This document shows, in pieces, positions 1,778 to 3,855 of a stretch of 15,268 nucleotides of DNA. The notes under the pieces are model-generated. The model was not told the DNA's origin. It ran no database searches and saw only the letters and a program-made list of their open reading frames with translations. The DNA is from a virus. The translations under genes were made by a program, and so were the position numbers. The stretch lies in UHGV virus genome UHGV-0136483, one strand, 5' to 3'. Position 1 is the stretch's first letter. Every line of letters starts with the position of its first letter.

Positions 1778-2806
1778 TTAATCGTGAAGTAGATTTAAAA
1801 GCACTTCAATTCTACGTGAGCGTTGGGTTTTGCTTTTTGTGCTAGAACTCATAGTTTTTCTATATTCTCTTCTTAATTCCGCATTATGTTGTGTATCTTT
1901 TTCCCACAAGCTATCCAGGAAGGTGGAAAGTCTATTTGACGCTTCTTCTACAGGAACATTATTGTTACTGCAATAAAGTGCATAACTGAAGATTCCGTAT
2001 AAGTGACTAACACCGCTTGCTTTATGACTTTTGAAATCAATATTCATATCAACTAAATAGTCAGTTGTTTTTTCAAAAATAGAAAATGCCTCATTTGTTT
2101 CATCACCATTCTTGGTGCAATACTTCTCGTAAAGACTATCAATTATGTCTTGAGTTGCACCAAATACTTCATCCTCAAGGATCGTGAATATCAATTCAGA
2201 TACAAACTCTTTGTCTTCCATTCTCTTCTTATCAACGTGCTCTAGCAATTTTTGCCAATATTCACGTTGTGAATATTCTACTATTTTTTTATAAAAATCA
2301 GTATCATGATATTTGGCATTCCTTAACTCTTGTCCGTTAAGTCGTTCACCATTTCTGTTAAGCCTGTCGAAAATACTATCAATTATTCTTTCGTCTTCAG
2401 TATCAATGTACTCTATAGGCATCTGATATCGCCAGAATAATTTTTTAACTTCTGCATATTTAGAAGTTGATAAATCGGAAAAAAACACACCAGTCAATTC
2501 ATCATCTTCTTCCTCACTTGCTGATGTTATTTGGCCATTGATAAAATTAACAATGGCAGTGAGCCTCTGTTTTCCGTCAACAACTTCAAACGTGATTCTT
2601 CCGGTGTCATCATCAATTTTTTGATGGAGAAATATAGGGGGAATTGGATAGTTACGTAGTATACTATCTATAAAGAATGATTGTTTTTCTTCATCCCAAA
2701 CACTATCTCTTTGATAAGGAGGATCAAAATTAAATTTGCCTAATGAAAAGCCCTCCCAAAAGGAAGCAATATTAATACTGTTTGAATCCCGCTTTAAAAT
2801 TTCCAT
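1778..2806 (-). CDS. DUF262-family (ParB/Srx-like) protein, 342 aa; second gene of a two-gene operon
   Basis: N-terminal PPYQRDSVW motif and VVDGKQRLTAI (the DGQQR-type motif of DUF262/GmrSD/DndB-like proteins). ATG at 2806-2804 overlaps the upstream stop (TAATG); AAGGAG lies 8 nt upstream. No DUF1524/HNH-like C-terminal module is evident. Low GC. Confidence 0.85.
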   Translation of the reverse strand: MEILKRDSNSINIASFWEGFSLGKFNFDPPYQRDSVWDEEKQSFFIDSILRNYPIPPIFLHQKIDDDTGRITFEVVDGKQRLTAIVNFINGQITSASEEEDDELTGVFFSDLSTSKYAEVKKLFWRYQMPIEYIDTEDERIIDSIFDRLNRNGERLNGQELRNAKYHDTDFYKKIVEYSQREYWQKLLEHVDKKRMEDKEFVSELIFTILEDEVFGATQDIIDSLYEKYCTKNGDETNEAFSIFEKTTDYLVDMNIDFKSHKASGVSHLYGIFSYALYCSNNNVPVEEASNRLSTFLDSLWEKDTQHNAELRREYRKTMSSSTKSKTQRSRRIEVLLNLLHD

Positions 2807-3855
2807 TAGGCAAGCTCCTTTAAAACTTCAGATGATGAATGATGAACATAACTATTAAATACCATTCCAAGTATAGCACTTAAACCATCAACATTTCCTG
2901 GATTAATCATTCTAACATTAACGTCACTGTTTATTTTGCGTATTATTGCATCAATTTCGGCACGATCAACATGCCAATATGAAATACCACAAATGAAGAA
3001 ATCATCGTTTGGGTTGTACGACTCCATCGTCGCTTCAATAGACTCTTTAATTGAATTAGCCCAGTTTTGGGCATAACGATGAGCTTCTCCTGCTGGCGGT
3101 ATTATTGGAATTAATGGCATGTAAAGGCTTAAGTTTTCATGCCGGCATTCGAATTTTGATATGTCGCCATTATTTAAAGATAACTCTTTTTGGATATTGT
3201 AGTTATCTTTTGACATATATCCTTCATACAAGAAGCTAATAGAGCCATGTGGTTTGTATATTTTAAACTTTGCATTCCCGTCAGATATGTTTGGGATGTC
3301 AAATCTGATATTAAGTAAATCAAGAAGGCGCTCAAGATAAATGTCATAGTTATAAGTTATAATATCAACTCGTTCTATGTTTTCGTTTTTGTCCAGTTTC
3401 ATCAAATAGTCTCGCCAGCCACTTTCTAACTTACGTAGATCTTCAGAGGAAACTTTTTCGTTATAATCAATGAAAAGCTCCCTTAAATATGAAACTAATT
3501 CTTGATAAGCATAAATGTAAATGTTTGACAATGGAGTATGACTTGCCTGATTTTTCTTCTTTATTGTTTCTGGAGGTAGAGTTGCATATAAATTTATTAC
3601 TGTAATTAATTCTTCTATTATTTGATATGATGCGGTTCTATTTAGCCCGGGTCTTGCACCCAATCGCCATAGATTTGGGCAATATCGAGCAGAAAGAAAA
3701 CCGGGTTCCCCAGTGGCGGGCCACTTAACCATATCGCCATATTTAAATAGATCGGATGGGTCAATTATATCAAGTTTGTCCATTTTGCTAAGGAGGTCAA
3801 TAGTGAATCCATTCCCAAGCATTAACCCAACTTTCTTTTTTTTTTCGCTGCTCAA
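2806..3855 (-). CDS. SIR2-like (SIR2_2 family, predicted NAD+-binding/NADase fold) protein, 349 aa if the TTG at 3855 is the start; the first ATG is at 3822
   Basis: Three SIR2-type motifs in order: VGLMLGNGFT (GxG Rossmann loop), IITYNYDIYLERLL (TTNYD-like) and KIYKPHGSISF (HGS). The TTG at 3855-3853 is preceded by AAGGA with an 8-nt spacer; the alternative ATG (3822-3820) has a poor RBS. Stop overlaps the DUF262 start. Low GC. Confidence 0.8.
   Translation of the reverse strand: MSSEKKKKVGLMLGNGFTIDLLSKMDKLDIIDPSDLFKYGDMVKWPATGEPGFLSARYCPNLWRLGARPGLNRTASYQIIEELITVINLYATLPPETIKKKNQASHTPLSNIYIYAYQELVSYLRELFIDYNEKVSSEDLRKLESGWRDYLMKLDKNENIERVDIITYNYDIYLERLLDLLNIRFDIPNISDGNAKFKIYKPHGSISFLYEGYMSKDNYNIQKELSLNNGDISKFECRHENLSLYMPLIPIIPPAGEAHRYAQNWANSIKESIEATMESYNPNDDFFICGISYWHVDRAEIDAIIRKINSDVNVRMINPGNVDGLSAILGMVFNSYVHHSSSEVLKELA

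Follow-up and report, generated by a model that had tools for sequence, protein, structure and literature searches.

The virus genome UHGV-0136483, a stretch of 15,268 nucleotides that we analysed at full length and refer to as the window, carries on its minus strand two adjacent genes, one for a SIR2-fold protein and one for a DUF262 protein. Both were found intact where the original prediction had placed them, and both open reading frames (ORFs) are real genes; homologues of each protein number in the hundreds, and in E. coli the PGAP annotation labels them "SIR2 family protein" or "hypothetical protein" and "DUF262 domain-containing protein." The pair and its expression signals comprise the following features:

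3855..2806, minus strand: gene 1, TTG start, a free-standing SIR2-fold protein of 349 amino acids (aa), predicted to be an NADase effector (ORF, motifs, AlphaFold/Foldseek)
2806..1778, minus strand: gene 2, a DUF262 (ParB-like NTPase) domain with a helical C-terminal domain, 342 aa, ATG start, predicted DNA sensor
2804..2808, minus strand: TAATG stop/start overlap, translational coupling (direct sequence reading)
1767-1743, minus strand: terminator-like hairpin, then UUUUCUC, 11 nucleotides (nt) past the DUF262 stop (RNA fold)
3856..3960, minus strand: intergenic region upstream of the SIR2 gene; sigma-70-like sites at 3952-3923 and 3923-3895, both weak, and AAGGA (consensus scan only)

The SIR2 stop codon TAA (2808-2806) and the DUF262 start codon ATG (2806-2804) share one base, as had been read from the TAATG overlap at 2806. 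An AAGGA ribosome-binding site lies 8 nt ahead of the SIR2 TTG codon, and all SIR2 homologues start 8-12 residues ahead of the GNG loop, retaining the first beta strand, which would be lost if translation began at the internal ATG at 3822; the TTG start is therefore supported. The hairpin beyond the DUF262 gene folds with -15.9 kcal/mol (z = -4.46; 0 of 200 shuffles fold as well) and is not among the sites listed by a consensus terminator scan. The operon is AT-rich, as the original prediction had noted: GC content is 32%-36% over positions 1000-4000 against 44%-53% in the flanks.

The three motifs reported for the SIR2 protein, GNGFT (residues 14-18), TYNYD (167-171), and KPHGS (201-205), are all present and prove invariant or nearly so across 26 homologues: G14, N15, G16, Y170, D171, and K201-S205 do not vary, and N169 is retained in at least 90% of the aligned sequences. 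The family has further invariant blocks of its own (W45-P46, G52-F53-L54-S55, P60, L62-W63, G66, R68, PPAG 253-256, and SYWHVDR 292-298), which give it the particular pattern WPxxxxPGFLSxxxCPNLWxLGARP, PPAG, SYWHVDR. SIR2_2 of Pfam is matched by 25 of the 26 diverse family members and the generic SIR2 models of PADLOC by all 26; for the E. coli protein itself, PADLOC returns weak generic "SIR2" and Aga_SIR2 matches and nothing else. An alignment-based AlphaFold model reaches a predicted local distance difference test score (pLDDT) of 89 and a predicted template modelling score (pTM) of 0.89. Compared with the PDB by Foldseek, it is closest to the SIR2 subunits of SIR2-HerA/Nezha (E-values down to 5e-10), followed by KomBC/HAM-SIR2, ThsA, DSR2, human FAM118B, and classical sirtuins. 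In the alignment of the family profile with PsSIR2 (8w9l), "iitynYD" falls on TTNYD and "kPhGsi" on KLHGSI, the catalytic Asn and His motifs.

Profile and structure searches thus upheld the fold and the family's SIR2_2 matches, while the E. coli protein's own Pfam score fell below threshold; the SIR2 assignment is made from the family matches, the motifs, and the predicted structure, not from that score. Judged by the model, the gene 1 product has a SIR2 fold of the immune SIR2_2-type branch, and its closest structural relatives are all NADase effectors of immunity. When 1.84 billion cluster representatives were searched exhaustively with a profile, 97 proteins were recovered at E ≤ 1e-30, the longest of 423 aa; at the level of sequence, the family is small and distinct.

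The DUF262 protein had been described as carrying PxYQRxxxW and DGKQR motifs with no DUF1524 or HNH nuclease, and this description holds. The motifs PPYQRDSVW (residues 29-37), DGKQR (77-81), and FDRLNRNG are intact, and 26 homologues show no variation at Y31-Q32-R33, W37, D77-G78-K79-Q80-R81, and F146-E154. Pfam gives no DUF1524 or HNH match, and GmrSD_N (PF03235) scores 96 bits, above threshold; the structural model (pLDDT 87.5) has the DUF262 fold, with an N-terminal ParB-like alpha/beta domain and residues 170-342 wholly helical, and ends after this helical domain. A PDB search by sequence with the DUF262 profile found no match, fold searches being required. The best PADLOC match is NsnA of the Menshen system (E = 1.9e-39, profile positions 51-379 of 385), followed by PD-T4-2_A (E = 1.4e-27). 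Since the first of these spans the full length of the NsnA model, the protein shares the NsnA build, a ParB-DUF262 domain followed by a helical one of the type that is termed ParBDB in NsnA and SspE.

The nearest DUF262 relatives outside the SIR2-linked family (P0254-P0260) are DUF262+HNH fusions of ~435 aa and one DUF262 + RelA/SpoT fusion of 676 aa. Because these have a fused HNH or RelA/SpoT domain instead of a SIR2 partner, their sequences suggest that the same DUF262 sensor is reused with exchangeable effectors. The DUF262 gene also matches the PADLOC "type II restriction enzyme" model PDLC03418 (E = 9.6e-12); where a cytosine-5 (C5) methylase gene is adjacent, automated tools could on this match mistake it for a type II endonuclease, and the module would be missed.

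Linkage and distribution of the pair

A pattern scan that took one genome per species gave 73 loci from other species. The DUF262 homologue directly follows the SIR2 gene on the same strand in 66 of them, so that the conserved adjacency, which the original prediction had left to a survey of genomes, is very strong. The seven unpaired loci comprise three contig ends (L022, L047, and L056), one disrupted SIR2 gene (L023), and three members of a distant clade (L064, L065, and L068). Among loci of the close family (≥32% identity) with intact downstream sequence, all 64 have the DUF262 gene as the next gene downstream, in the same orientation. Pairing likewise holds for five out of five IMG/VR viral-contig loci and for both of the longer SIR2 variants (387-411 aa) that we looked up. 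The intergenic gap in 56 complete pairs ranges from -17 to +16 nt (median -4), with an overlap in 42, and the pairwise identities of the two proteins are correlated (r = 0.84 over all pairs; 0.57 over divergent pairs only). The pair is an evolutionary unit, obligate in the close family, rather than a chance adjacency.

The three distant-clade SIR2 genes that lack a downstream DUF262 gene (L064 5983-7167, L068 5971-7161, and L065 2281-3471) encode proteins of 394-396 aa at 31%-33% identity, in Clostridium and other Bacillota. From their sequences, they appear to be solitary AbiH-like relatives.

No fewer than nine phyla of bacteria are represented among the loci, along with a single archaeon: hosts include Gamma-, Beta-, and Alphaproteobacteria, Bacillota, Bacteroidota, Verrucomicrobiota, Planctomycetota, Nitrospirota, Calditrichota, Cyanobacteriota, and the archaeon Methanimicrococcus, and protein matches extend the range to Myxococcota, Desulfobacterota, and Campylobacterota. 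All-against-all clustering of 471 flanking ORFs revealed no conserved third gene in the 66 loci beyond restriction-modification (RM) genes and scattered helix-turn-helix proteins. There are no DNA or protein matches to the pair in 50,697 phage genome records and a single match, on a Sulfurovum megaplasmid, in 72,556 plasmid records. Within E. coli, the full 3.6-kb region occurs in 26 of 5,426 complete genomes.

The argW island in E. coli

Around the pair, the window contains the following further features:

4563..5780, minus strand: P4/IntS-type tyrosine integrase of the argW island (Pfam Arm-DNA-bind_3, Phage_int_M, Phage_integrase)
4042-4412, plus strand: insertion sequence (IS) fragment, an IS3-family transposase, frameshifted and truncated, ~50% GC
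5929..5943, minus strand: attachment (att) core, a 15-nt copy of the tRNA-Arg (argW) 3′ end (comparison with strain 744 and other strains)
442..948, plus strand: decayed SngC (Shango helicase) gene, intact C-terminal end of 168 aa, convergent with the pair (PADLOC)

Compared with strain 744, the window shows 99.97% identity as far as position 5943, a base that falls 15 nt inside the tRNA of that strain, and it diverges beyond; in other strains, the match to the prophage begins at 5927. The window itself has no complete tRNA by ARAGORN. The integrase of strain 744 directly adjoins tRNA-Arg beside yfdC, that is, at the argW site, and the island runs away from the tRNA in the order integrase, IS fragment, pair, helicase pseudogene, IS1203, and afa adhesin operon. 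The rest of the window (5944-15268) is a lambdoid prophage that begins with a TorI-type excisionase (6017-6217), followed by ERF, Kil, CIII, Ral, and a LexA-like repressor. In other strains, dsdC adjoins this prophage, as it does the end of the KplE1 prophage. In KplE1, intS and torI lie at opposite ends. The window therefore contains two elements arranged in tandem at argW.

These boundaries bear on the cargo position that had been assigned to the pair. It does lie beside an integrase, which is ~700 bp upstream with the IS3-family fragment between them. We reject the pair as cargo of the window's prophage, however, because the att core at 5929-5943 divides the two and puts the pair on a separate argW island, whose content is the integrase, the IS fragment, the pair, and a Shango remnant. 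In another genome, a copy of the pair (L076 1605-5181; IMG/VR UViG_2843769068_000001) shares 86% (SIR2) and 88% (DUF262) protein identity with that of the window. It belongs to a predicted prophage of 44.6 kb, which encodes Sipho_Gp157 as well, and lies close to the end of that prophage, facing a phage-type integrase in convergent orientation. The pair may thus be true prophage-edge cargo in some genomes.

The SngC remnant matches its PADLOC model with E = 4.9e-30 over profile positions 564-719 of 720. PGAP annotates 46-948 on the plus strand as a DEAD/DEAH helicase pseudogene, and the frame upstream of 442 is broken by several stops. Since this convergent Shango gene is a broken remnant, the pair stands in a decaying defence islet, and the IS3-family fragment adds to the signs of decay in the island. 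The ~780 bp downstream of the pair (998-1777) have a GC content of 32%-33% and a single small ORF (997-1197, 66 aa, no family match); this AT-rich stretch may be a remnant of lost cargo.

Proposed function and alternative readings

The analysis shows two folds, intact catalytic and nucleotide-binding motifs, obligate pairing, and a defence-type genomic context. In E. coli, this context consists of 34% GC in a region of ~50% GC, a patchy occurrence (26 of 5,426 genomes), and a neighbourhood with an integrase, the IS fragment, and what is left of a Shango system. We put at about 55% the probability that the pair is an uncharacterised two-protein anti-phage system, carried here on a horizontally acquired argW island, in which a DUF262 sensor governs a SIR2 NADase effector and infection is aborted. 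The DUF262 protein would bind DNA and recognise a feature of the invading DNA, the binding or hydrolysis of a nucleoside triphosphate serving as the switch. The overlap with the upstream gene sets a fixed ratio of SIR2 protein to this sensor, and the two would probably form a complex; once licensed, the SIR2 protein would hydrolyse nicotinamide adenine dinucleotide (NAD+), the metabolism of the infected cell would stop, and the infection would be aborted.

The division of roles is modelled on DUF262 being the recognition and NTPase part of other systems and on the structurally close SIR2 proteins all being NADase effectors, and a SIR2-DUF262 complex is implied by the translational coupling and the co-divergence of the two proteins. 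We infer that complex as a physical one, together with NADase activity, a trigger, and protection against phage. As a candidate, the sensor/effector split of no named system that was originally proposed is borne out by the folds, by the linkage, and by the lack of a name in PADLOC-DB 2.0 or in the literature searched. The combination is not surprising in principle, since both parts are known to be shuffled, but as an E. coli candidate the pair is unusually compact and well conserved, and its neighbours across the loci give a concrete lead to a trigger.

Several points weigh against this reading. The top Pfam match of the E. coli SIR2 protein is AbiH at 23 bits, with SIR2_2 at 18 bits, both under their gathering scores. 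SIR2 enzymes also vary in their chemistry, some members being deacylases or ADP-ribosyltransferases rather than NADases. Neither a concatenated query nor the exhaustive profile search found a SIR2-DUF262 fusion, which would have been proof of direct interaction; with no relative longer than 423 aa, there is none in the 1.84 billion cluster representatives. The promoter-like sites upstream of the pair are no more numerous in the consensus scan than in shuffled sequence, and a promoter is therefore not established. The literature searched contains no experiment on a SIR2-DUF262 pair. Finally, the frequency of C5-methyltransferase genes beside the pair suggests a logic more specific than generic DNA sensing.

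Across the loci, RM genes are the commonest neighbours of the pair. A C5-methyltransferase (PF00145) lies within 4 kb in 27 of 66 loci as a raw count and in 12 of 30 lineages (clustered at 60% identity). C5-methylases account for 17 of the 150 nearest neighbouring ORFs, by far the commonest neighbour, and no N6 or N4 DNA-methylase family is among the 25 commonest families of those ORFs. In ~40% of loci and lineages, complete C5 type II RM systems, some including Vsr, stand directly beside the pair (for example L053 4172-5981, L016 8214-10241, and L082 2103-4946, within the range L003-L071 and L082). The endonucleases found with the linked methylases are of the families NgoMIV (11 loci), Cfr10I/Bse634I (five), and HNH (three), with one locus each for NaeI (with Vsr, in Burkholderia), BsaWI, NgoFVII, and EcoO109I. 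The Burkholderia locus, L082, forms a cassette of five genes (M-Vsr-NaeI-SIR2-DUF262). Most are thus of families (NgoMIV, Cfr10I/Bse634I, NaeI, and BsaWI) that presumably recognise CCGG-core sites, as taken from the Pfam family and prototype enzymes.

These neighbours may reflect plain clustering of defence genes in islands, or they may, by analogy with the Dazbog system, point to a link with cytosine methylation. Taken further, the analogy would make the pair an accessory or effector arm of C5 RM systems, in which a neighbouring methyltransferase writes 5-methylcytosine (m5C) at a short site, in many cases one of the CCGG family, the DUF262 protein reads its state, and wrongly marked DNA triggers the SIR2 NADase. 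This would parallel the reading of host phosphorothioate by SspE and DndI, with restriction by NAD+ depletion in place of cutting. In its favour, Dazbog turns toxic upon expression of a phage CCGG m5C methylase (bioRxiv 10.1101/2022.08.27.505566). We nevertheless think this version improbable. Some 60% of loci lack a nearby methyltransferase, and none was found beside the E. coli pair, whether in the window or in 27.6 kb of strain 744. The RM genes vary in position and strand, as neighbours would and members of one operon would not; the linked RM systems are self-sufficient, and defence genes cluster anyway. If it were true, the pair would give an RM system that restricts by NAD+ depletion instead of a nuclease, and the orphan E. 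coli copy would have lost, or no longer need, its methylase.

A second alternative, which we regard as quite unlikely, is an addiction module of toxin-antitoxin-like type: the SIR2 protein would be the toxin and the DUF262 protein its restraint, and the pair would serve to stabilise mobile islands, with no dedicated anti-phage role. A translationally coupled two-gene operon on islands beside integrases or recombinases would fit, as would the inherent toxicity of SIR2 NADases and the report that the partner of the Dazbog DUF262 gene could not be deleted, possibly through toxicity (bioRxiv 10.1101/2022.05.11.491447). Typical antitoxins are, however, far simpler than a 342-aa NTPase with invariant nucleotide-binding residues and a helical domain; the closest relatives of the DUF262 protein are sensors of validated defence systems, and the pair is nearly absent from plasmids, with the one match in 72,556 records. 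Many toxin-antitoxin-like modules act in defence, so that the distinction is partly one of naming.

Least probable of all is an exchange of roles, with the DUF262/ParB-like protein as nuclease effector and the SIR2 protein in a sensory or regulatory role, either through binding NAD+ or ADP-ribose or through ADP-ribosylation or deacylation of a target instead of NAD+ depletion: ParB/Srx-fold proteins do include nucleases, DUF262 was once annotated as a "ParB-like nuclease" (PMC3632139), and SIR2 enzymes have several chemistries, but characterised DUF262 proteins cut through a fused HNH/DUF1524 domain, DUF262 being their NTPase/recognition part (PMC4619093, PMC10952713, PMC13251355), and the closest structural relatives of the SIR2 protein are NADase effectors throughout.

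An anti-phage system of this kind would matter in several ways. SIR2 NADases and DUF262 sensors are each established in bacterial immunity, and their obligate combination is unnamed in the resources searched. At ~690 residues in total, the pair would be a compact model of how a ParB-like NTP switch relays DNA recognition to a separate enzyme, a question that it shares with Menshen, PD-T4-2, and Dazbog. The linkage to C5 RM systems suggests a testable trigger, and the natural occurrence of the pair in E. coli makes standard phage panels and NAD+ assays directly applicable. Should the pair be merely another shuffling of sensor and effector, the gain would be one entry for defence-annotation tools, which at present miss or may mislabel it.

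Comparison with known defence systems

PADLOC-DB 2.0 contains no named system that covers the SIR2-DUF262 pair, although a more recent naming is possible. In the accessible parts of the literature to mid-2026, including the main text and supplements of DefensePredictor and the DUF262 papers since 2025, the pair is undescribed.

On the sensor side, the statement that known DUF262 systems fuse this domain to a nuclease is outdated, since the DUF262 proteins of PD-T4-2, Menshen, and Dazbog lack DUF1524 (PMC10952713, PMC12065111). The DUF262 protein described here matches NsnA, the proposed DNA sensor of Menshen (PMC12065111), end to end and with the same domain build. In Menshen, the sensor is accompanied by the ABC-ATPase NsnB and the nuclease NsnC; here, neither lies downstream of the DUF262 gene, where the hairpin is followed by the ~780 bp with one small ORF, and the sole partner is the upstream SIR2 gene. 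PD-T4-2, also from E. coli, resembles the pair in its two genes and in its free DUF262 protein, PD-T4-2_A, which the one described here matches with E = 1.4e-27, but the partner there is a HEPN protein (PMC10952713) instead of SIR2, and PADLOC gives no match to PD-T4-2_B. Dazbog likewise has two genes and a DUF262 protein without DUF1524, and it aborts infection and responds to cytosine methylation (bioRxiv 10.1101/2022.08.27.505566). Its DUF262 gene comes first, however, whereas ours comes second, and PADLOC reports no DzbA or DzbB match at E ≤ 0.1. With their partner genes absent, membership in Menshen, PD-T4-2, and Dazbog is rejected.

DUF262 is also the recognition/NTPase part of BrxU, SspE, and DndI, and in SspE recognition of the modification leads to GTP hydrolysis, which licenses the nuclease allosterically (PMC10952713, PMC13251355). 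GmrSD, BrxU, SspE, and DndI have a fused DUF1524/HNH nuclease; here, a separate SIR2 protein is the presumed effector. Defence against T7, among other phages, is provided by an E. coli DUF262-Schlafen fusion (PMC13056530). WonAB of the V. cholerae WASA-1 prophage consists of an ABC-ATPase and a PD-(D/E)xK nuclease and is rejected as unrelated.

On the effector side, SIR2-HerA (Nezha/PD-T7-2), ThsA, DSR1/2, SPARSA, and KomC share the N-Y-D and H-G-S motifs with the SIR2 protein and are its closest solved structures (Foldseek E-values from 5e-10 to 7e-4); all are NAD+-depleting effectors under separate sensor control. The locus differs from Thoeris, DSR, SIR2-HerA, SPARSA, and Kongming in having no HerA, SLOG/TIR, pAgo/APAZ, KomA/B, or large fused sensor, its SIR2 protein being a bare 349 aa. 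AbiH of Lactococcus, classed among the immune SIR2 proteins (bioRxiv 10.1101/2024.09.18.613514; PMC13064643), is similarly a small free-standing SIR2-like protein of ~350 aa and the top Pfam match. AbiH works as a single gene, whereas the SIR2 family described here is tied to a DUF262 gene, the distant 31%-33% identity clade excepted; identity with AbiH is rejected, the 23 bits falling short of the PF14253 cut-off of 30.9 and only one of 26 family members matching. With the partner genes of all these systems sought and not found, the pair is a sensor of the Menshen/PD-T4-2 type joined to an effector of the SIR2-HerA/Thoeris/DSR type.

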